Counted from the first letter of the stretch, positions 13,532-22,502 are shown. The stretch: 64,000 bases of DNA from an uncultured delta proteobacterium (GCA_963792825.1 CAWBXS010000001.1:47436-111435); one strand, 5' to 3'. Notes: generated from the letters alone by a model not told the origin. Translations and numbers: made by a program.

Positions 13532-15145
13532 TCAGCTTTCGAGAAGACGTCGGGCGACGACGTGCGCCTGAATTTCGTTTGCGCCCTCGAAGATGCTGAG
13601 CACTCGTGAATCCACCAACAGACGCGACGCTGTGTATTCCTCCGCGTAACCGTTGCCACCGTGGATTTGCACGTTCGCGTCGGAGGCCTCCCAGGCAGCT
13701 CGGGTCGCAAGGAGCTTGGCCATCCCGGCTTCGAGGTCGCAGCGCTTGTCTTCGTCCTTCTCACGGGCACTGAAATAGGTGAGCTGCCGGGCGGCTTCGA
13801 TTCGCACGACCATTCGGCCGATCTTTCGAGCGACCCGCGGGAACTGAAAGATGGGCCCACCGAACTGCTCTCTCTCGGTTGCGTACAAGATCGCGTCCTC
13901 GAGCGCTGCTTGTGCGAGGCCCACGCCCCGTGCTGCCGTTTGAATCCGAGCGCTCTCGAACGTGCGCATGAGCTGCTTGAATCCCGCGCCCTCCTCGCCG
14001 CCGAGAAGGGCGTGTCCTGGAAGCTCGAAGTCCTCGAAGCTCAGCTCGTACTCCTTCATCCCGCGGTAACCGAGAACCTTGATTTCGGTGCCGGTGAGTC
14101 CTTTGTCGACGAACTCGGGTCCGCCGTCTTCGCCGGTCAGGCGCGTCTTTTCGGCGAGGAACATCGAAAGTCCCTCGTAGCCGGGCTCGTCTGCATTGGT
14201 CCGCGCGAGAAGCGTCATCAGGTCTGCGCGCACCGCATGGGTGATCCATGTCTTTTGACCATTGACCACGTAGCTTCCATCCGGCTGCTTGGTCGCCCGC
14301 GTCCCGAGGTGCGCGAGGTCGGATCCGATGTTGGGCTCGGTGAAGACCGCCGTGGGGAGGACTTCCCCGGCAGCGATCATGGGAAGCCACTTCTGCTTTT
14401 GCTCCTCGGTGCCACCACCCATGATCAGCTCGGCTGCGATTTCGGCGCGGGTTCCGAGTGAGCCTACGCCGATGTAGCCGCGCGACAGCTCCTCGGTGAC
14501 GACGCACATCGCCACCTTGGTCATCCCGAGCCCGCCGTACTCCTCCGGAATCGTGAGGCCGAACACGCCGAGCTCGCTCATCTGGTCGACGATGTCCATC
14601 GGAATCAGGACGTCCCTTCGGTGGATGTCCTGGGCCTTTGGAATGACCTCGACGTCGACGAACCTCGAAAACTGTGCTCGGATCTCCTCGAGCATCTCCT
14701 CACCGAAGCCTCGGTTCGGAAACCCGTGGTCTCGGGCATGCGCGGCGAGCTCCAGGTAAACCTTCCCGCTCGCGTGCTCGGTCGAAAAGGCGACGATTTC
14801 CGGACGCAGCAAAGTTTCGAGCAGGTCCGGCTCGGTGATGCCGAGCTCACCGAGTGAGATGTTTTCACAAGGGCCGAGGTCGACCCCTCCGACGAGCGCG
14901 CGAGCAACTTCGCCGACGTAGGCCCGAGCGACCTTGCCCTCCAAGTCTCCGCCGACGCGGTCCGCCCATGCGGTTAATTGCCGACAAGCTTCGAGCTCGG
15001 TCGCCAGATAAGAGACGGCATGAGCAGCGAGCTGGTGTTGGTTGAGCTTGGCGCCGCTGACCCGGCCACCCGTCGAGACGAGCGTTTTGACGTTGTCGTG
15101 TGCGCGCCTGTAGACCCCTTCGATGGCTTCGATGACTTTTTGCAT
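13532..15145 (-). CDS. mcd: (2S)-methylsuccinyl-CoA dehydrogenase (acyl-CoA dehydrogenase with N-terminal extension)
   Basis: True start MQKVIEAIEG at 15145, 8 nt after the ccr stop. Motifs LPTAVFTEPNIGSDL, GQKTWIT, GYRGMKEYEL, FESARIQTAARG, QIHGGNGYA and IFEGANEIQ. Lies in the ecm/ccr operon. Confidence 0.85.
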   Translation of the reverse strand: MQKVIEAIEGVYRRAHDNVKTLVSTGGRVSGAKLNQHQLAAHAVSYLATELEACRQLTAWADRVGGDLEGKVARAYVGEVARALVGGVDLGPCENISLGELGITEPDLLETLLRPEIVAFSTEHASGKVYLELAAHARDHGFPNRGFGEEMLEEIRAQFSRFVDVEVIPKAQDIHRRDVLIPMDIVDQMSELGVFGLTIPEEYGGLGMTKVAMCVVTEELSRGYIGVGSLGTRAEIAAELIMGGGTEEQKQKWLPMIAAGEVLPTAVFTEPNIGSDLAHLGTRATKQPDGSYVVNGQKTWITHAVRADLMTLLARTNADEPGYEGLSMFLAEKTRLTGEDGGPEFVDKGLTGTEIKVLGYRGMKEYELSFEDFELPGHALLGGEEGAGFKQLMRTFESARIQTAARGVGLAQAALEDAILYATEREQFGGPIFQFPRVARKIGRMVVRIEAARQLTYFSAREKDEDKRCDLEAGMAKLLATRAAWEASDANVQIHGGNGYAEEYTASRLLVDSRVLSIFEGANEIQAHVVARRLLES

Positions 15146-15153
15146 GGCTGCTC

Positions 15154-16374
15154 TTAGCCTTTCGCGATCGCCGAGCGGGTTTCTTCGAGGTTCTTCAACC
15201 CGGGTCGCGGCGCGCCGACCAGGCAAGCGACCGTACCGTGAAGCTTGTTCTCGTACATGAGCTGATGGGCCTCTGGGATTTGCTCCCAAGTGAAGAGACG
15301 CGTCATGACCGGCTGGATCTTGTTCTGGATCACCAGGCGATTCGCGCGGCGCGCGGAATCCGCATCCGCGAAGTGAGAGCCGATGATCTTCTTTTGGCGC
15401 ATCCAGAGGTGACGCACGTCGAACGTGAGGTTGTAGCCGGTCGTCGCTCCGCAGATCACGATGCGCCCGTACTTCGATGCGAGAAACACGCTGGCGGGGA
15501 AGGTGGCTTTGCCGACGTGCTCGAACACGACGTCCGGCCCCTTGCGCTCGCCGAGGATCTCCCAGATTCGCTTCCCAAACCCCTTGAGTGCGTCGCCATG
15601 GGCCTTTTGCTCCCCGGGCGTCATGTCGTCCTTGTATTGGAGAGCGGGAAAGTCCTTGCGGTTGATCACCCCGTGCGCGCCGAGCTGCATCGCGAGCTCT
15701 GCCTTGTCGTCGCTCGAGACCACCGCAATCGCCCGCGCGCCCATCACTTTGCAGAGCTGTATCGCGAACACCCCGAGGCCCCCGCCGGCGCCCCATACCA
15801 GGACATCCTCGCCGGGCTCGAGGCGGGCGCGGTCGACGAGCATCCGGTGGGCAGTGTAGTACGTGAGGCCGTAGCTCGCGGCCTCTTCCCAGCTCAGGTG
15901 TGCCGGCTTTGGAAGCACCTGCTGTCCCTGGACCCTCGTGAACTGCGCGAAAGAGCCGTCGGGGGTTTCGTAGCCCCAAATCGTCTGCATGTCGTCGGTG
16001 CCTGGGTTGACGAGATGGTTGCAGTGCAGCACCACCTCGTCGCCGACCTTGTGATCGTGGACCCCCGGTCCGATCGCCCAGATGACGCCCGACGCATCGG
16101 AGCCGGCGATGTGGTACTCGAGGCCGTGCCCCTTGAGGATGTTGACCGGCTCGCCGAGCCCAGCCCAGATACCGTTGAAGTTCACGCCCGCGGCCATCAC
16201 TTGAACCAGCACCTCGCCCGGGCCGAGATCCCAAACCGGCACCTCCTCGGGTTGGAATGATTTCTTCGGCTCGCCGAAACGTTCGGGCCGGATCACGTAG
16301 GCGTGCATCTTGCTCGGCACGGCGCCGAGCTCTGGGACTTGACCGATCGGTATGATGTTTGGACCTTTACTCAT
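15154..16374 (-). CDS. ccr: Crotonyl-CoA carboxylase/reductase (ECR family)
   Basis: VMAAGVNFNGIWA, HIAGSDASG, IWGYETPDGSFAQF, GAGGGLG, VFEHVG and WMRQKKIIGSHFA. Confidence 0.92.
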   Translation of the reverse strand: MSKGPNIIPIGQVPELGAVPSKMHAYVIRPERFGEPKKSFQPEEVPVWDLGPGEVLVQVMAAGVNFNGIWAGLGEPVNILKGHGLEYHIAGSDASGVIWAIGPGVHDHKVGDEVVLHCNHLVNPGTDDMQTIWGYETPDGSFAQFTRVQGQQVLPKPAHLSWEEAASYGLTYYTAHRMLVDRARLEPGEDVLVWGAGGGLGVFAIQLCKVMGARAIAVVSSDDKAELAMQLGAHGVINRKDFPALQYKDDMTPGEQKAHGDALKGFGKRIWEILGERKGPDVVFEHVGKATFPASVFLASKYGRIVICGATTGYNLTFDVRHLWMRQKKIIGSHFADADSARRANRLVIQNKIQPVMTRLFTWEQIPEAHQLMYENKLHGTVACLVGAPRPGLKNLEETRSAIAKG

Positions 16375-17386
16375 CTCTTCCTCGTGGTGTCTTGCCGAGC
16401 GTCTTTAGATAGTCTCGACTCAAGCGATCGCAAAGACTCAGGGGCGTTTCGCCGCCGTCGAGCTCTCGTTCCGTGCGGGCGCGCACCTCTTCTAGCCCTC
16501 CTAGGGTCGAAACGCCGTGCTCGCCATGCTTGCGGCTGAAAAGATCGAGGGCCCACTGGACCTCGCCCCGGCGTCGACGCGCCGCGAGCGTCGGCGCCAG
16601 ATGCTGCCTATGCCGCTCGAGGGCATCGGCGAGCGCATCGATTCCCATGCCTTTGGTTGCGCTGGTCGCAAGAATCGGGGTCTCCCAATCAGAGTCCTGG
16701 GCCCCGGCTCCGACCGCATGGGCGGTCCGGACGGCCCCCCTCAGGTCGGCGACCGCACGCTCCGCGAGCTCGTTGTGATCCGCTTTGTTGACGACGAGGA
16801 TGTCGGGGATTTCCATGATGCCGGCTTTGAGAAACTGGAGCACGTCGCCGCTTCCTGGCTGGATCACGAGCACCACGGTGTCGGCGACATGGACGACATC
16901 AATCTCCGACTGGCCTACTCCAGTCGTTTCCACGACGACCATGTCATAGGCGGCGGCCAAAACCCGGACGGCCGAATTTGCGGCATAGGCGAGGCCGCCG
17001 ACTTCACCGGCGGTTGCGAGGGAGCGGACGAAGAGCCCTGTGTCCGAGGGGTCGAAGCTCATGCGCGCGCGATCCCCGAGCAAGGACCCGCCCGACTGCA
17101 CACTCGATGGATCGACGGCGACGACCCCGACCGTGCGACCTCGACTCCGGACGGCCCGCGCGAGCACCGAAGTCAGCGTGCTTTTTCCAACGCCTGGGGG
17201 GCCGGTGAGCCCGACCCGATGACCCCCCGCCGCCTTGGGAGCGTCTCTGAGGCTCGCGAGCAATTCGGTCACGCGTGCCTGAGATTCCTGACGTCGATCC
17301 TCGACGAGGTTCAAGGCACGTGAAACGGCCGTCTTGTCCGCGGACATCACGCGCCTTGCGTCGTCGGCGAGATCACTCGGCGGCAT
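16367..17386 (-). CDS. meaB: MeaB/ArgK-type GTPase chaperone of B12-dependent acyl-CoA mutases
   Basis: GLTGPPGVGKST, VDPSS...GGSLLGDRARM, VETTGVGQSE, QFLKAGIMEI and NKAD. Overlaps both ecm and ccr. Confidence 0.93.
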   Translation of the reverse strand: MPPSDLADDARRVMSADKTAVSRALNLVEDRRQESQARVTELLASLRDAPKAAGGHRVGLTGPPGVGKSTLTSVLARAVRSRGRTVGVVAVDPSSVQSGGSLLGDRARMSFDPSDTGLFVRSLATAGEVGGLAYAANSAVRVLAAAYDMVVVETTGVGQSEIDVVHVADTVVLVIQPGSGDVLQFLKAGIMEIPDILVVNKADHNELAERAVADLRGAVRTAHAVGAGAQDSDWETPILATSATKGMGIDALADALERHRQHLAPTLAARRRRGEVQWALDLFSRKHGEHGVSTLGGLEEVRARTERELDGGETPLSLCDRLSRDYLKTLGKTPRGRDE

Positions 17387-19379
17387 GCTGGCGGTCCACC
17401 AGATCGATCAGCTCGCTCATGATGTGATCGAGCTCGAAATCCTTCGGCGTGTAGACCGCGGCGACTCCTTCACGTCGAAGCCGCTCGGCATCAGCGTCGG
17501 GAATGATGCCGCCGACGACCAGCGGAACGTCGCCGAGCCCTGCATCCCGAAGGCGCTGCGCCACTTCGGGGACGAGCGCGAGATGGGAACCGCTGAGGAT
17601 GCTCAGGCCGATCAGATGAACCCCTTCCTCGAGCGCGGAGGCTACAATCTGTTCCGGAGACACGCGAATTCCTTCGTAGACGACGTCGAAGCCGACATCG
17701 CGAGCCTTGATCGCGATTTGCTCTGCGCCGTTCGAGTGGCCATCGAGGCCTGGCTTGCCCACCAGAAGCTTCGGCCGTCGGCCCATCCGGGCCTCGAGCT
17801 CGTTCAATCGCTGCCGCAGCCGCGCGACCGTGGCCGCCGACGCTCCGGACCCCGTCGTCTTCACGCTCGCGCCAGCGACGCCCGTGGGCGCGCGGTACTC
17901 GCCCCACACCTCGCGAAGAGTATTTGCCCATTCGCCAGTCGTGACCCCCGCGTGGGCCGCTGCGATGGACGGGATCATCATGTTCTCGTTGGTTTTCGCA
18001 ACCTGCCGCAACTCTGCGAGGGCACGGCCCACCGCCGCATTGTCCCGCTCTTTCTTCCACCGTGCGAGGGCGGTGCGCTGATGCGCGTCTACCTCGGGGT
18101 CGACCGTGAGAATCGCCTCGTCGAGGTTTTCGGTGAGCGGCGAGGGCTCACCCTCGATGAACTTGTTGACCCCGACGACGATCTGCTCACCGCTCTCAAT
18201 CGCGCGAAGCCGAGCGGCGTTCGACTCGACGAGCTTCTGTTTGATGTAACCGCTTTCGACCGCTTCGATCGCTCCGCCGCGTTTGAGCACCTCTTGGACC
18301 TCTGCCCAAGCCGACTCGGCGAGCCGTTTGGTTTGCTTCTCGACGACGACGCTGCCTTCGAAGAGGTCTCCGTACTCGAGCAGGTCGGTCTCGTAGGCCA
18401 AGATCTGCTGGGCACGCAGCGACCATTGCTGGTCCCAGGGGCGTGGAAGACCGAGCGCCTCGTTCCATGCGGGAAGTTGAATCGCGCGGGCCCGGGCGTC
18501 CTTGCTGAGGGTCACTGCCAGCATCTCGAGAACGATTCGGATGATGTTGTTCTCGGGTTGCTGCTCGGTCAGACCGAGAGAATTGACCTGAATGCCGTAA
18601 CGGAAACGTCGCTGCTTCGCGTCGGTGATGCGGTAGCGCTCTCGGGCGACCCGGTCCCACAGCTCGACGAAGGCGCGCATCTTGCACATTTCCTCGACGA
18701 ACCGAATGCCCGCGTTCACGAAGAAGCTCATTCGCCCGACGACCTTGCCAAACTCGCTGTCCGGAACGCGACCCGTCGCCTTGACGGCGTCGAGGACGCC
18801 GATCGCCGTGACGAGGGCGTATGCGAGCTCCTGTGTCGGCGTCGCGCCGGCTTCTTGGAGGTGGTAGCTACAGATGTTGATGGGGTTCCATTTCGGAGCT
18901 TTGTCGACCGTGTAGGTGATCAAGTCGGTGGTCAGCCTCATCGACGCTGCAGGTGGAAAGATGTGGGTGCCGCGCGACAGGTATTCTTTGATGATGTCGT
19001 TCTGAGTCGTGCCGAGAAGAACACTCGGGTCGATTCCCTGCTCCTCGGCGACCGCCACGTAGAGCGAGAGCAACCAGACCGCGGTTGCATTGATCGTCAT
19101 CGACGTGTTCATTTGGTCGAGAGGCAGGCCGTCGAACAGAGCGCGCATGTCCCCGATGTGCGAAACAGGCGTTCCGACCTTGCCCACCTCGCCGCGGGCG
19201 AGCGGATCGTCGGCGTCGTAGCCGGTCTGGGTCGGCAGATCGAAGGCCACGCTGAGGCCGGTCTGCCCCTTCGCGAGGTTGGTGCGATAGAGCTCGTTCG
19301 ATGCCGCTGCCGTGCTGTGGCCCGCGTAGGTCCGCATGATCCAGGGCTTGTCGCGCTCCCGCTTACCGTACTCCGCCAT
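17373..19379 (-). CDS. ecm: Ethylmalonyl-CoA mutase (B12-dependent, MeaA/Ecm)
   Basis: Start MAEYGKRERDKPWIMRTYAGHS at 19379. RTYAGHS and QVNSLGLT are Ecm-type signatures, whereas MCM has RQYAGF. C-terminal B12-binding motif KPGLDGHSNG. Confidence 0.92.
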   Translation of the reverse strand: MAEYGKRERDKPWIMRTYAGHSTAAASNELYRTNLAKGQTGLSVAFDLPTQTGYDADDPLARGEVGKVGTPVSHIGDMRALFDGLPLDQMNTSMTINATAVWLLSLYVAVAEEQGIDPSVLLGTTQNDIIKEYLSRGTHIFPPAASMRLTTDLITYTVDKAPKWNPINICSYHLQEAGATPTQELAYALVTAIGVLDAVKATGRVPDSEFGKVVGRMSFFVNAGIRFVEEMCKMRAFVELWDRVARERYRITDAKQRRFRYGIQVNSLGLTEQQPENNIIRIVLEMLAVTLSKDARARAIQLPAWNEALGLPRPWDQQWSLRAQQILAYETDLLEYGDLFEGSVVVEKQTKRLAESAWAEVQEVLKRGGAIEAVESGYIKQKLVESNAARLRAIESGEQIVVGVNKFIEGEPSPLTENLDEAILTVDPEVDAHQRTALARWKKERDNAAVGRALAELRQVAKTNENMMIPSIAAAHAGVTTGEWANTLREVWGEYRAPTGVAGASVKTTGSGASAATVARLRQRLNELEARMGRRPKLLVGKPGLDGHSNGAEQIAIKARDVGFDVVYEGIRVSPEQIVASALEEGVHLIGLSILSGSHLALVPEVAQRLRDAGLGDVPLVVGGIIPDADAERLRREGVAAVYTPKDFELDHIMSELIDLVDRQHAAE

Positions 19380-19477
19380 TCGCCGGTCCTTTCCTGTGCG
19401 ATTCGCCCGAGGGGCCAAGAGCGTAGCTCGTTTTCACCATCGCCTGCGATCCGGCGCTCGCGACCGTTGCGGCGCTC

Positions 19478-19604
19478 TTTACAGCTTCACAAAGTCTAGC
19501 CGGACTCACCTCGATTATCATAGCGCCGTGAAGGGTCAAGCGGTTGAGAAACCCGGGTTTTGGTTGGTTCTTCGCCCTGGTGGATCTTGTAAATTTACGG
19601 TAAA
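19478..19604. promoter_or_regulatory. Candidate ScfR-family operator motifs in the ecm/scfR divergent intergenic region
   Basis: TTTACAGC-TTCACAAA at 19478-19493 and CTTGTAAATTTACGGTAAA at 19586-19604 (overlapping palindromes GTAAATTTAC and TTTACGGTAAA). These AT-rich islands resemble the TTTGCAAA half-site of PccR/PrpR/RamB. Confidence 0.45.
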
Positions 19605-19612
19605 TAGCCGGA

Positions 19613-21118
19613 ATGGCTGAGACGAACGCCGCGATGGGCCAACGTCTTCGAGAGCTTCGGCTCCGACGCGGGTTGCAGCAGAGCGAGGTGGCGCGTCGGC
19701 TCAAGATCTCGCCGGCGTACTTGAGCCTGATCGAGAAGGGCCGACGCGTCGTCCAGCTGCCCCTGCTGTTTCAGGCGCTCGAGCTCTACGACGTCGCGGT
19801 CGAGGACTTCATGGCGAGCCTCGGGGAGCGCCGCGCCGACGATGGTCTCGCTCGACTCCTCGACGAGCCCTTGTTGCGCTCTTTGAACCTCGTCGAGGAG
19901 GACCTCACCAGCCTCAGCGCGGAGCCGCGCATGGTGACGACCATCACGGCTCTCTTCAATCTCTACAAGAACACGCGCAGTCAGCTCGATCACGTCATCG
20001 CGAGCATCGCACAGCGCGAACGCCAAGCCGACGAAGATTCGGTTCGTTTCGACTACAGCCCCTACGACGAGGTCACGGACTTCCTCGAGCAAAACCACAA
20101 CTGGTTCGAGCTGCTCGAGGAGCGTGCGCAGCAGTTTCGCCGCGATTGCGCGTTCGGGCGCCGAGTGACGAGTGACGATCTCGAGCGCGGGCTGCGCGAC
20201 CAGATCAGCGTCCGCGTGCATCGAGTTCCCAAGCGGGCCGACAGCTCCGTCATCCGCACTTGGAACGCCAAAGAACGAATTCTGACGGTGTCGGATGAGC
20301 TGTTCGAACAACGCTTGAAGTTCCAGCTCGCACACACGGTAGCGCTCGGCCTCTTCGACGAAGAAGCACTGCACGAGCCCATTCTCCAGGGCTACAGGGG
20401 GCAGCACGCCGAGACACGGAGGTTGATCAAGATTCACCTCGCCAACTATTTCGCAGGCGCGCTCCTGCTTCCCTATCCAGAGTTCTACCGCGAAGTCATG
20501 AGCACACGCTACGACGTCGAGTTGCTCGCGCAGCTTTTCGAGTCGTCCTATGAGACGGTTGCTCACCGGATGTGCAACTTGTCTGACCCGCGACGCCGTG
20601 GAGTCCCGATGCACTTTCTGAGAGTCGATGTCGCGGGCAACATCTCCAAGCGGTATGCGGGGGACGGAATTCGGTTCCCGCACCAGGGCGGCTCTTGTCC
20701 CAAGATGGCGGTTCACTTGGCCTTTCTGACACCGAGCGTGATCACCAAGCAGTACTCGGCGTTTCCCGACGGGTCGACGTACTTCTGCTTTGCGAAGGTC
20801 GTCAGCGAGCCGCAGCAGGGTTCGCTCGTCAAGGGAACGACGTACAGCATCGGGCTGGGAACACATGCGCACCATGCAAAGCATTTCGCGTATGCGGACG
20901 CGCTTCCGTTTGCCGATCCGAAGAGGATGGCGGTGCCCGTCGGGACGACGTGCCGGTTCTGCGAGAGGACCGACTGCAACATGAGGTCGGCGCCGAGCTA
21001 CAAGTTCGCGTTTCGCGTCGACGAGTACACCAAGAAGGACAACTTCTTCTCGCCGTTGGTGAGCGGGGACCCTGGCGTGGCGGTGCACAAGCCGGCTCGC
21101 CGGAAGCCGACTGCATGA
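19613..21118 (+). CDS. Short-chain fatty acyl-CoA regulator (ScfR; RamB/PrpR/PccR family) XRE transcription factor
   Basis: N-terminal XRE HTH (GQRLRELRLRRGLQQSEVARRLKISPAYLSLIEKG), RLKFQLAHTVA, ANYFAGALLLPY, SYETVAHRM, RVDVAGNISKR, and the C-terminal Cys cluster CRFCERTDC. Confidence 0.92.
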   Translation: MAETNAAMGQRLRELRLRRGLQQSEVARRLKISPAYLSLIEKGRRVVQLPLLFQALELYDVAVEDFMASLGERRADDGLARLLDEPLLRSLNLVEEDLTSLSAEPRMVTTITALFNLYKNTRSQLDHVIASIAQRERQADEDSVRFDYSPYDEVTDFLEQNHNWFELLEERAQQFRRDCAFGRRVTSDDLERGLRDQISVRVHRVPKRADSSVIRTWNAKERILTVSDELFEQRLKFQLAHTVALGLFDEEALHEPILQGYRGQHAETRRLIKIHLANYFAGALLLPYPEFYREVMSTRYDVELLAQLFESSYETVAHRMCNLSDPRRRGVPMHFLRVDVAGNISKRYAGDGIRFPHQGGSCPKMAVHLAFLTPSVITKQYSAFPDGSTYFCFAKVVSEPQQGSLVKGTTYSIGLGTHAHHAKHFAYADALPFADPKRMAVPVGTTCRFCERTDCNMRSAPSYKFAFRVDEYTKKDNFFSPLVSGDPGVAVHKPARRKPTA

Positions 21119-21142: not shown

Positions 21143-21628
21143 ATGCCGTCGTTCGATGTCGTTTCCAAAACCGACCAACACGAGGTCGAGAACGCGCTCA
21201 ACCAGGCGAGCAAGGAAATCGCGCAGCGATACGACTTCAAGGGCACCGACACGACGATCGAGCGAACCGACGAGGGAATCGTGCTTCGTGCGAACAGCGA
21301 GGGTAGGCTCGACGCCGCGCGTGACGTGCTCGAAAGCAAGATGGTCCGCCGCCAGGTGTCGTTGAAGTCGCTCGACGCCGAGGAGCCGCAGAAGGCAGGC
21401 GGACAAATGTGGCGTCAGCTAATCAAGGTCAAAGAGGGCGTCTCGAAAGAAAAAGCAAAGGACATCGTCAAGGCCATCAAGGACGGGAAGTTCAAGGTCC
21501 AGGCGTCCATACAGGGCGATTCGGTGCGGGTTTCGGGAAAGAAGCGCGACGATTTGCAGGCGACGATCGCGTTTCTCAAGGAGCAGGACTTCGACCTGCC
21601 CCTGCAATACGTGAACTTCAGGGACTGA
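21143..21628 (+). CDS. yajQ: YajQ family cyclic-di-GMP/nucleotide-binding protein
   Basis: MPSFDVVS, RYDFKG, KVQASIQGDSVRVSGKKRDDLQ and LQYVNFRD. Confidence 0.96.
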   Translation: MPSFDVVSKTDQHEVENALNQASKEIAQRYDFKGTDTTIERTDEGIVLRANSEGRLDAARDVLESKMVRRQVSLKSLDAEEPQKAGGQMWRQLIKVKEGVSKEKAKDIVKAIKDGKFKVQASIQGDSVRVSGKKRDDLQATIAFLKEQDFDLPLQYVNFRD

Positions 21629-21638
21629 GGCGGGTCGT

Positions 21639-22502
21639 GTGACACGAGCCAAAAGAGAGCTGACCGTCGGCTATCAGGGCACCGAGGGGGCCTACAGCCA
21701 ACTCGCAGCGATGCATCACTTCGCGAACGAGGCCGCGCGCCTAGTCTGCGTCGGCTATCACAGCTTTCGCGAGATGCTGCAGGCGCTCCGGGCCGGCGAG
21801 GTGGACTATGCGGTGCTCCCGATTGAGAACTCGATCGCAGGATCGATCAACGAGAGTTACGACCTGCTCGCCGAGATGGGGCTGCATCTCGTCGGTGAGG
21901 AATATCAACCGATCGCGCATTGTCTCATCGGGGCGGCGGACGTTGCGGTGACCGACATTCGCCGCGTCTACTCGCATCCGGTTGCGCTGGCGCAATGTCG
22001 CCGCTTCCTCGAGACGCTCGATGACTGTCACGTCGAGGCTTTCGTCGACACCGCGATGGCGGTCGAGAAGGTCAAACGAGATGCCGATCCGACGCAGGCC
22101 GCGATCGCGAGCGAAGAGGCCGCGGCGCTCCACGGACTACCCATCATTCGGCGGGACATCGCAGATCATCCCGAAAACTACACCCGAATGGTCATCGTCG
22201 CATCGGAGCCCGAACGCGTCGAGCGGGGCATCTCCTGCAAGACCTCTCTGATCTTTTCCACGATCCACGAGCAGGGTGCCCTCGCTCGATGCATCTCCAT
22301 CCTCGCCGCCCGGGGCCTCAATCTCACCAAGATCGAGTCGAGACCCAAACCGGACACCCCGTTCGAGTACGTCTTCTACGTCGACTTCGAGGGTAATGTC
22401 GACCGAGACGCCACGCAGGCTGCGCTTCGCGAGCTCGAGGCGGTGACGACCTTTCTCACCGTGCTCGGCTCCTATCCGATAGGTCGCGCAAAGGTCAGCT
22501 AG
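21639..22502 (+). CDS. pheA: Prephenate dehydratase (PDT + ACT domain)
   Basis: YQGTEGAYS, PIENSIAG, SHPVALAQC, NYTRM, KTSLIF, NLTKIESRP and LGSYP. Confidence 0.94.
   Translation: MTRAKRELTVGYQGTEGAYSQLAAMHHFANEAARLVCVGYHSFREMLQALRAGEVDYAVLPIENSIAGSINESYDLLAEMGLHLVGEEYQPIAHCLIGAADVAVTDIRRVYSHPVALAQCRRFLETLDDCHVEAFVDTAMAVEKVKRDADPTQAAIASEEAAALHGLPIIRRDIADHPENYTRMVIVASEPERVERGISCKTSLIFSTIHEQGALARCISILAARGLNLTKIESRPKPDTPFEYVFYVDFEGNVDRDATQAALRELEAVTTFLTVLGSYPIGRAKVS

Follow-up and report, generated by a model that had tools for sequence, protein, structure and literature searches.

Does an ScfR-family regulator control the ethylmalonyl-CoA (EMC) pathway in myxobacteria? The question is raised by a 64,000-nt stretch of DNA from an uncultured delta proteobacterium (GCA_963792825.1, CAWBXS010000001.1:47436-111435; hereafter the window), which holds a compact operon, ecm-meaB-ccr-mcd, facing an scfR gene. 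The EMC pathway is a CO2-fixing route of acetate assimilation and a favoured chassis for synthetic carbon fixation, and its regulation is poorly understood. Known regulation comprises the TetR-family protein CcrR and, in Paracoccus, an indirect effect of RamB; the signal that turns the pathway down in Paracoccus is termed 'unknown' (PMC10370305). As far as is described, CcrR, which acts on ccr in Methylobacterium, is the sole transcriptional activator dedicated to an EMC gene. Here, we propose, with a probability of about 0.65, that the window encodes a new ScfR subclass that controls the entry and upper half of the EMC pathway through two predicted promoters and regulates its own expression.

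A compact operon predicted to encode the EMC-specific steps

The window corresponds to C1:47436-111435 of a 4.44-Mb, five-contig (C1 to C5), 99%-complete metagenome-assembled genome (MAG), whose host is assigned to Polyangia-class Myxococcota and described as a marine or soil myxobacterium. Four minus-strand genes, overlapping at their ends by 4, 8 and 14 nt, occupy positions 13532-19379. The first of them, ecm (also meaA; 17373-19379), encodes a single-chain ethylmalonyl-CoA mutase of 668 aa with fused MM_CoA_mutase and B12-binding domains. It carries the motif IMRTYAGHST where the genome's own MutB has IRQYSGFST, lacks the MutB-type N-terminus, and is 63-65% identical to proteins annotated as 'protein meaA' in Paracoccus, Ruegeria, Methylobacterium and Streptomyces, versus ~39% to Mcm. 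The product of meaB (16367-17386, minus strand) is the G-protein chaperone of a B12 mutase (TIGR00750, 257 bits, cut-off 241; PF03308 match).

Further along the operon, ccr (15154-16374, minus strand) encodes a 406-aa protein of a divergent subtype with a shortened loop. It scores 496 bits on TIGR01751 (cut-off 379), the sole such match in the genome, and 443 bits against Methylobacterium extorquens Ccr (4GI2), from which it differs by an indel of ~10-12 aa and with which it shares the CO2-binding residues (NFN, the E of WGYET and the H of GSHF). By these matches the protein is a crotonyl-CoA carboxylase/reductase, and carboxylation is predicted. The last gene, mcd (13532-15157, minus strand), encodes a (2S)-methylsuccinyl-CoA dehydrogenase of 541 aa with an N-terminal extension of ~150 aa. 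The protein aligns with the Paracoccus denitrificans enzyme 6ES9 over residues 7-540, extension included (E 3.4e-168), and three acyl-CoA dehydrogenase (ACAD) Pfam domains cover residues 156-539. The operon is thus predicted to encode the EMC-specific steps from crotonyl-CoA to mesaconyl-CoA.

The start of ecm is the ATG at 19379, which is kept in 15 relatives in an alignment of 17 orthologous loci. An open reading frame call that begins at a TTG at 19418 is probably too long, given this conserved ATG, and the gap between ecm and scfR therefore measures 233 bp (19380-19612). An earlier reading made from the sequence alone (hereafter the sequence-only reading) had described four overlapping minus-strand genes with Ecm, ECR and Mcd signatures that face a full-length ScfR across about 230 bp, and our results bear this out. 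Orthologous Ecm (56-65% identity), Ccr and Mcd also occur in Alphaproteobacteria, Streptomyces and Leptospira. In the Ruegeria, Paracoccus and Leptospira records, however, meaA is not beside meaB, mcd or any ScfR and forms no compact operon, unlike the four overlapping genes of the window.

The facing regulator belongs to a discrete ScfR clade

The scfR gene (19613-21118, plus strand) encodes an ScfR/IsaR-family regulator of 501 aa, the sole ScfR in the genome. It combines an N-terminal XRE helix-turn-helix (HTH) domain at residues 8-65 (HTH_31, E 2.7e-13; HTH_3, E 8e-11), an IrrE/M78-like domain at residues 199-320 (Peptidase_M78, PF06114) and a GAF-like/ScfR C-terminal domain at residues 323-478 (PF09856, 161 bits). 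Over residues 149-472 it matches MtPrpR (6CZ6) with an E of 4e-55.

To place this protein, we surveyed 301 Myxococcota genomes, searched a global library of 1.84 billion representatives (50% clusters of ~15 billion proteins) and built a maximum-likelihood tree of 62 sequences with Shimodaira-Hasegawa-like approximate likelihood-ratio test (SH-aLRT) support, in which references were classed by their annotated gene neighbours. Identities to the window protein are bimodal across the Myxococcota genomes, 26 of which have a match at 55% or more (E <1e-138) and 61 a match at 31-40%. Full-length matches in the global library show a similar step, from 62% and 52% identity down to 36% (639, 501 and 343 bits). 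In the tree, the 38 high-identity proteins group together as a single clade (SH-aLRT 100; stem, 2.36 substitutions/site), whose internal identities are at least 52-55% while those to anything else stay at or below 40%. This shows that the window ScfR belongs to a discrete clade, which as far as sampled is restricted to Polyangia-class Myxococcota and whose members found are uncultured MAGs throughout. Its close relatives all come from Myxococcota MAGs, labelled Myxococcales SG8_38, Sandaracinaceae, Sandaracinus sp., Polyangiales and Polyangia, in agreement with the probable myxobacterium that the sequence-only reading had suggested.

That reading had also called for a phylogeny against the known classes, and in our tree the protein does not group with PccR, PrpR or RamB. 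The clade lies outside PccR (Bartonella, linked to pccB-pccA-scpA), MccR (Pseudochrobactrum, linked to prpD-prpC-prpB) and MtPrpR, and equally outside an IbcR-like protein (Sinorhizobium meliloti pSymB, linked to acyl-CoA dehydrogenase and hydratase genes) and the RamBs of Azospirillum and Streptomyces clavuligerus (linked to aceA or aceA/aceB). The Bartonella PccR groups with other proteobacterial ScfRs, far from the clade, and the window scfR is flanked by ecm and yajQ, not by pccB. PccR of Cereibacter (Rhodobacter) sphaeroides (Carter & Alber 2015, as cited in PMC12632250) is reported as an ScfR that activates pccB, a gene employed in the EMC route, and has repeated boxes upstream of this target; unlike the window ScfR, it adjoins pccB-pccA(-mcm) and governs the methylmalonyl-CoA part of the route, whereas the window genome has no box before mutA. 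Membership in the MccR/PrpR class is contradicted by a position outside the prpDCB-linked group and by a genome with no prpB or prpD.

RamB offers the closest parallel. Class 2 RamB of P. denitrificans shares with the window ScfR its domain architecture, its Fe-S motif, a position divergent from its target operon (in the window a predicted target) and two near-identical boxes (in the window putative operators); it forms tetramers and responds to CoA esters, EMC intermediates among them (PMC10370305). Unlike the situation in the window genome, RamB controls malate synthase and isocitrate lyase, and the absence of isocitrate lyase and malate synthase A here places the window ScfR outside the RamB class. 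It also scores 297 bits on the RamB equivalog NF038139, well below the cut-off of 700. RamB-type proteins do exist in the same phylum: among the low-identity Myxococcota ScfR loci, 10 of 15 examined adjoin a malate synthase-like gene, in most cases followed by an isocitrate lyase-like gene, and one such pair was verified by TIGR01344 and NF011645. These ScfRs beside aceB-aceA form a different group, with 31-37% identity to the window ScfR, which sits apart in its own clade on a long stem. Finally, M. extorquens CcrR is an unrelated, TetR-family protein with ccr as its single known target; unlike the window ScfR it has no known acyl-CoA/Fe-S sensing domain (Hu & Lidstrom 2012, PMC3370644).

A further ScfR in the tree, encoded on the Paracoccaceae plasmid pLA6_002 (CP031587.1 81014-82420), is very divergent, with an end branch of 2.6 substitutions/site. 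Its gene is divergent from hprA (glycerate dehydrogenase), a 'soluble hydrogenase 42 kDa subunit' gene, glyA and a ketopantoate reductase gene, which may be another ScfR target set. We take the 'soluble hydrogenase' to be, possibly, a serine-glyoxylate aminotransferase.

Conserved sensor residues and a substituted pocket position

The cysteines of C447-X2-C450-X4-C455, together with C362, align with the [4Fe-4S] ligands of MtPrpR (C447, C450, C455 and C363) and are invariant in 38/38 clade members. By analogy, the C-terminus is predicted to carry a [4Fe-4S] cluster. The XRE HTH domain and the CxxCxxxxC motif had both been recognised by the sequence-only reading. In MtPrpR (6CZ6, 6CYY; PMC6765138), Tang et al. 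found Phe240, His319, Arg338, Lys347 and Arg348 to be essential CoA contacts. All 38 clade members keep the equivalent residues (F237, H318, R337, K346 and R347 in the window protein), so that the four Fe-S cysteines, the adenine-stacking Phe/His and three basic CoA-contact residues are common to the two proteins. Unlike the window ScfR, PrpR controls prpDC, and its K217, K410 and R159 are not conserved in the clade.

The last of these positions may bear on the ligand. PrpR Arg159 touches the succinyl-CoA carboxylate in a RamB-like PrpR mutant, and the position is Arg in all 7 proteobacterial and actinobacterial references, RamB-type proteins included. Its equivalent is Thr155 in the window protein and Thr, Ser or Ala across the clade. 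We speculate that the substitution points to a ligand that lacks a distal carboxylate; acetyl-, acetoacetyl-, crotonyl- and butyryl-CoA would be examples.

scfR is linked to EMC genes in many arrangements

We then investigated how the clade is distributed relative to the pathway. A ccr gene above cut-off is found in 56 of the 301 Myxococcota genomes; it is present in 26/26 clade-bearing genomes and in only 2 of the 61 with a low-identity ScfR. EMC genes in Myxococcota have been reported previously (PMC10576062), and the sequence-only description of a lineage not usually credited with this route was therefore too strong.

Gene order was surveyed in 25 fetched loci and, across 185,579 genomes, in the 80 best loci at species level. 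This follow-up of synteny, also suggested by the sequence-only reading, found Ecm, Ccr or Mcd at 68 of the 80 species-level loci; 9 of the other 12 have less than 3.1 kb of upstream sequence. At least 9 arrangements link scfR to ecm, ccr, mcd, mch, hbd (3-hydroxybutyryl-CoA dehydrogenase) or epi. Mcd-Ccr-MeaB-Ecm is divergent from ScfR as in the window, elsewhere with Mch added; Mch-Mcd-Ccr is divergent from Ecm-MeaB-ScfR; and Ecm-MeaB-ScfR converges on Ccr. ScfR and Ccr may be co-directional or, elsewhere, divergent, and ScfR may be followed at a distance by MeaB-Ecm and by Ccr divergent from Mcd-Mch. Several families, f2, f7 and f8 among them, have a short hbd gene placed divergently to scfR, once with a bona fide methylmalonyl-CoA epimerase at the locus (TIGR03081, above cut-off).

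Two neighbours of scfR stand outside the pathway. A YajQ-family cyclic di-GMP-binding protein (21143-21628) and a prephenate dehydratase (21639-22502) are encoded 3' of the window scfR on the same strand; this position is kept throughout the genus and does not occur in other genera. In one family, 2-oxoacid:ferredoxin oxidoreductase alpha/beta-like genes adjoin the clade scfR (L031 and L033, in genomes G270 and G160).

Predicted operators at two promoters

The ecm/scfR control region was examined by phylogenetic footprinting over the 17 loci, which points to two elements. Box A, TTTACAGCTTCACA (19478-19491), is a single inverted TGTAAA half-site that lies 99 nt upstream of the ecm ATG, and its core TTTACAGC is invariant in all 17 aligned loci. 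In another family, the same element, TTTACAG(A/C)(C)TTCAC, stands upstream of scfR (L030; TTTACATCTTCAC in L037). The second element is the direct repeat TGTAAATTTACGGTAAA (19588-19604, plus strand), of the form TGTAAA-N5-KGTAAA, which we predict to be the ScfR operator. Lying ~210 nt upstream of ecm and ending 8 nt short of the scfR ATG, it holds the same position in genus relatives.

The direct-repeat pattern is rare. The 4.4-Mb genome contains 2 matches versus 0.1 expected. The second is found 107 nt upstream of an operon of hbd (here a 447-aa 3-hydroxyacyl-CoA dehydrogenase) and a thiolase, an acetyl-CoA acetyltransferase by NF004936 (632 bits, cut-off 375). These two enzymes catalyse the entry steps of the EMC pathway. 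Across 21 genomes of the genus the pattern is found in all, in exactly two copies in 17, with no match for a reversed-pattern control; each of the sites checked (30/30) falls in the ecm/scfR region or upstream of hbd. In the footprint of the hbd promoter, the direct repeat sits just upstream of a conserved TTGAC, and a third box, TTGTAAAC, lies ~20 nt before the ribosome-binding site. Both promoters thus combine the direct repeat with one distal box ~75-100 bp away. MtPrpR and RamB-Pd are tetramers (PMC6765138, PMC10370305), and this layout fits, by analogy, a tetrameric regulator with four HTH domains. Altogether, the synteny and the common operator boxes support a predicted regulatory link between ScfR and EMC genes, and its direct targets would comprise ecm-meaB-ccr-mcd, the hbd-thiolase operon and scfR itself.

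Is the box a mark of this clade? TGTAAA/TTTACA repeats are also found in RamB-type intergenic regions of Azospirillum and Myxococcota, and we rejected the box as clade-specific since RamB-type loci carry the same one. As a family-typical half-site, TGTAAA is not new in itself as an operator, and for the same reason its assignment to the genome's single ScfR is the stronger. We presume that it is related to TTTGCAAA, which we take to be the PccR site.

Several other elements were considered. The perfect palindrome GTAAATTTAC (19589-19598) is specific to the window genome; relatives read TTTGC there, and the element is therefore treated as a direct repeat. Other repeats (D1-D3, I1-I2) were dropped for lack of conservation in relatives. 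An apparent repeat array at C5:42088-42706, with seven TTTACA copies, proved to be a coding repeat. A weak candidate for a third target is the gene of a 382-aa acyl-CoA dehydrogenase (C2:1761521-1762669), with two single TTTACA half-sites 120-210 nt upstream (C2:1761309-1761400).

By analogy with PrpR, PccR and RamB, the regulator would be a [4Fe-4S] tetramer that holds CoA or a short acyl-CoA in its conserved pocket and binds repeated TGTAAA boxes. It would most likely regulate itself and, in response to an acyl-CoA signal, switch the route from acetyl-CoA via acetoacetyl-CoA and 3-hydroxybutyryl-CoA through to mesaconyl-CoA. Such a switch would operate in an organism without a glyoxylate cycle or a methylcitrate cycle, with carbon presumably flowing through the EMC pathway.

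The rest of the pathway in the genome

No isocitrate lyase was found in the 99%-complete genome (0 PF00463 matches, controls positive), and AceA, AceB (malate synthase A), PrpB (methylisocitrate lyase) and PrpD gave no tblastn match. Absence of the glyoxylate cycle is typical, though not obligatory, for the EMC pathway. The sequence-only reading had placed epi, mch, mcl and mcm outside the window and proposed a search of the rest of the genome; most of these genes are indeed found there. Mch is encoded at C1:441803-442876 (4E3E, E 4e-128, 431 bits; 8HGN, E 3e-119) and Mcl1, the malyl-/beta-methylmalyl-CoA lyase, at C2:1312318-1313367 (4L7Z, E 5e-155, 519 bits). Mcl1 is followed by a CitE-like Mcl2 candidate, which resembles Mcl proteins (E 1e-46) and could fill the malyl-CoA thioesterase slot, and by sucCD-like genes (together C2:1312318-1316387). 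A classical mutA-mutB-meaB set lies at C1:145389-150606, separate from Ecm.

Some features of these genes stand on their own. Mcl1 and Mch are of the Chloroflexus/Roseiflexus 3-hydroxypropionate-bicycle type, not of the alphaproteobacterial type, and the sucC/sucD-like pair beside Mcl1 is divergent and scores below the succinyl- and malate-CoA ligase cut-offs. The genome also encodes a third acyl-CoA mutase large-subunit homologue without a fused B12 domain (C5:529591-531015), a separate B12-binding-domain gene (C4:349785-350111) and a third MeaB-like gene (C4:129229-129820), whose tblastn match is split over two frames and may reflect a frameshift. In two same-genus genomes we found a second ccr, 569 aa long and extended at the C-terminus (L176, G165:C4:18744-27913; L177, G195:C10:11392-20561). 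It precedes citE-like, MaoC-like and CoA-transferase genes and adjoins bchC-/bchX-like genes, possibly a photosynthesis gene cluster. A link to photosynthesis (Li et al. 2023) was rejected for the window genome, which has no match to the bchC-/bchX-like genes of these two genus members.

Could the cluster instead supply ethylmalonyl-CoA or related extender units for secondary metabolism, with ScfR tuning the supply? Homologues of ccr in myxobacteria often serve polyketide synthesis, and ccr is common in the phylum. Yet Ecm, Mcd, Mch and Mcl use up ethylmalonyl-CoA instead of delivering it; no polyketide synthase gene is adjacent, and the genome measures only 4.4 Mb. Moreover, because isocitrate lyase and malate synthase A are absent, the genome needs another route of C2 assimilation. 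We consider a role in extender-unit supply very improbable.

Weighing a pathway switch against broader and narrower roles

A number of observations weigh against a regulator of the EMC pathway as proposed here. They concern, in the first place, the reach of the boxes. The upstream regions of mch, mcl1 and mutA in the window genome were searched and contain none. Where a family has ccr/mcd or ecm away from scfR, the promoters of those genes carry no recognisable box, and its boxes occur solely in the scfR-hbd region. It may be, then, that the direct regulon centres on hbd and scfR, with ecm included only where the promoter is common. Since hbd and thiolase also serve beta-oxidation and polyhydroxybutyrate (PHB) metabolism, the regulon would not be exclusive to the EMC pathway. 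A scan of 19300-19700 for sigma-70 promoters and terminators found none; with no promoter located there, the regulator may act by activation or by repression.

Other points concern gene content and linkage. The epimerase (ethylmalonyl-/methylmalonyl-CoA) is represented by a sub-threshold candidate only (C2:1048843-1049244; 52 bits, cut-off 115), and propionyl-CoA carboxylase by four acyl-CoA carboxylase beta paralogues with 27-34% identity to a PccB, none of which is singled out. Seven ccr-positive genomes of the same class lack a clade ScfR. Three of the 80 species-level loci have adequate flanking sequence and still lack Ecm, Ccr and Mcd. Among the fetched loci the same holds for L030, where scfR is divergent from hbd and an epimerase gene, and for L033, with no pathway gene nearby. 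In four same-genus genomes with Mcd-MeaB-Ecm, ccr is missing from the operon, and a canonical 424-aa ccr (~570 bits on TIGR01751, compared with ~490 for the window type) lies in an unrelated neighbourhood without TGTAAA boxes; the loss looks like displacement by a second ccr type (loci concerned in the swap: L016, L022, L024 and L172-L175). As to novelty, Tang et al. 2019 summarise the Carter & Alber classification of ScfRs as already including the ethylmalonyl-CoA pathway. Within the library of papers that we searched, none ties an ScfR to ccr, ecm or mcd by position or experiment. On balance, the window ScfR is probably a new subclass of a known regulator family.

These observations bear on two further explanations. 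In the broader one, ScfR is a single general short-chain acyl-CoA regulator with a RamB-like role, and the EMC operon is one of many acetate, fatty-acid and propionate targets. This would agree with its being the only ScfR in the genome, with boxes of the same kind as at RamB-type loci, with a predicted target, hbd-thiolase, that is not EMC-specific, and with weak extra half-site pairs such as that upstream of the ACAD gene at C2:1761521. In P. denitrificans, in addition, RamB controls the glyoxylate cycle and also influences how ccr, ecm and mcd are expressed (PMC10370305). However, in the 21 genus members the complete direct repeat is limited to two promoters per genome, and the lack of boxes at mch, mcl and mutA counts against a general regulator as well. 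Every clade-bearing genome also has ccr, and scfR keeps its place next to EMC genes when loci are rearranged. We regard a general role as unlikely, although it is the stronger of the competing explanations.

In the narrower one, ScfR would control only itself and hbd, for C4 acyl-CoA, beta-oxidation or PHB turnover, and its adjacency to ecm-ccr-mcd would be inherited gene order. Families f2, f7 and f8 have boxes only at scfR-hbd and none at the ccr-mcd divergent promoter or at ecm, and the window direct repeat abuts the scfR start, 210 nt away from ecm. Against this stand the invariant core of Box A ~100 nt upstream of ecm in every locus with this arrangement, the linkage to ecm, ccr or mcd kept in many independent arrangements, including co-directional scfR-ccr and ecm-meaB-scfR, and the presence of ccr in each clade-bearing genome. 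We therefore hold a role confined to scfR and hbd to be quite doubtful.

The sequence-only reading had proposed an ScfR subgroup dedicated to the EMC pathway. None of the three outcomes that it named as refuting came about, and its interpretation is supported in part. The subgroup stands as a discrete clade; the word 'dedicated' does not, given the hbd-thiolase target and the missing boxes at mch, mcl and mutA. The safest statement is that the clade would regulate C2/C4 entry (hbd, thiolase) and, in the window's family, the ecm-meaB-ccr-mcd operon with which it has a promoter region in common, and not the whole pathway. To a fuller version we give about even odds: an unrecognised 'EMC-type' ScfR/IsaR class would be the master switch of EMC entry in Polyangia-class myxobacteria, sensing a non-carboxylated C4/C5 acyl-CoA through its Arg159-to-Thr pocket and acting through TGTAAA repeats at the ecm-meaB-ccr-mcd and hbd-thiolase promoters.

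Implications

With its predicted operator, two-promoter regulon and pocket substitution, the clade ScfR offers a concrete candidate, inexpensive to test, for a regulator that acts directly on the EMC pathway in response to acyl-CoA. Within one phylum, an either/or pattern sets RamB-type ScfRs with aceB-aceA against EMC-type ScfRs with ccr/ecm, which would illustrate how a sensor family was re-targeted when the anaplerotic strategy changed. If the proposal is true, this would be the first dedicated acyl-CoA-sensing EMC regulator and would mirror the function of RamB in those relatives that rely on the glyoxylate cycle.

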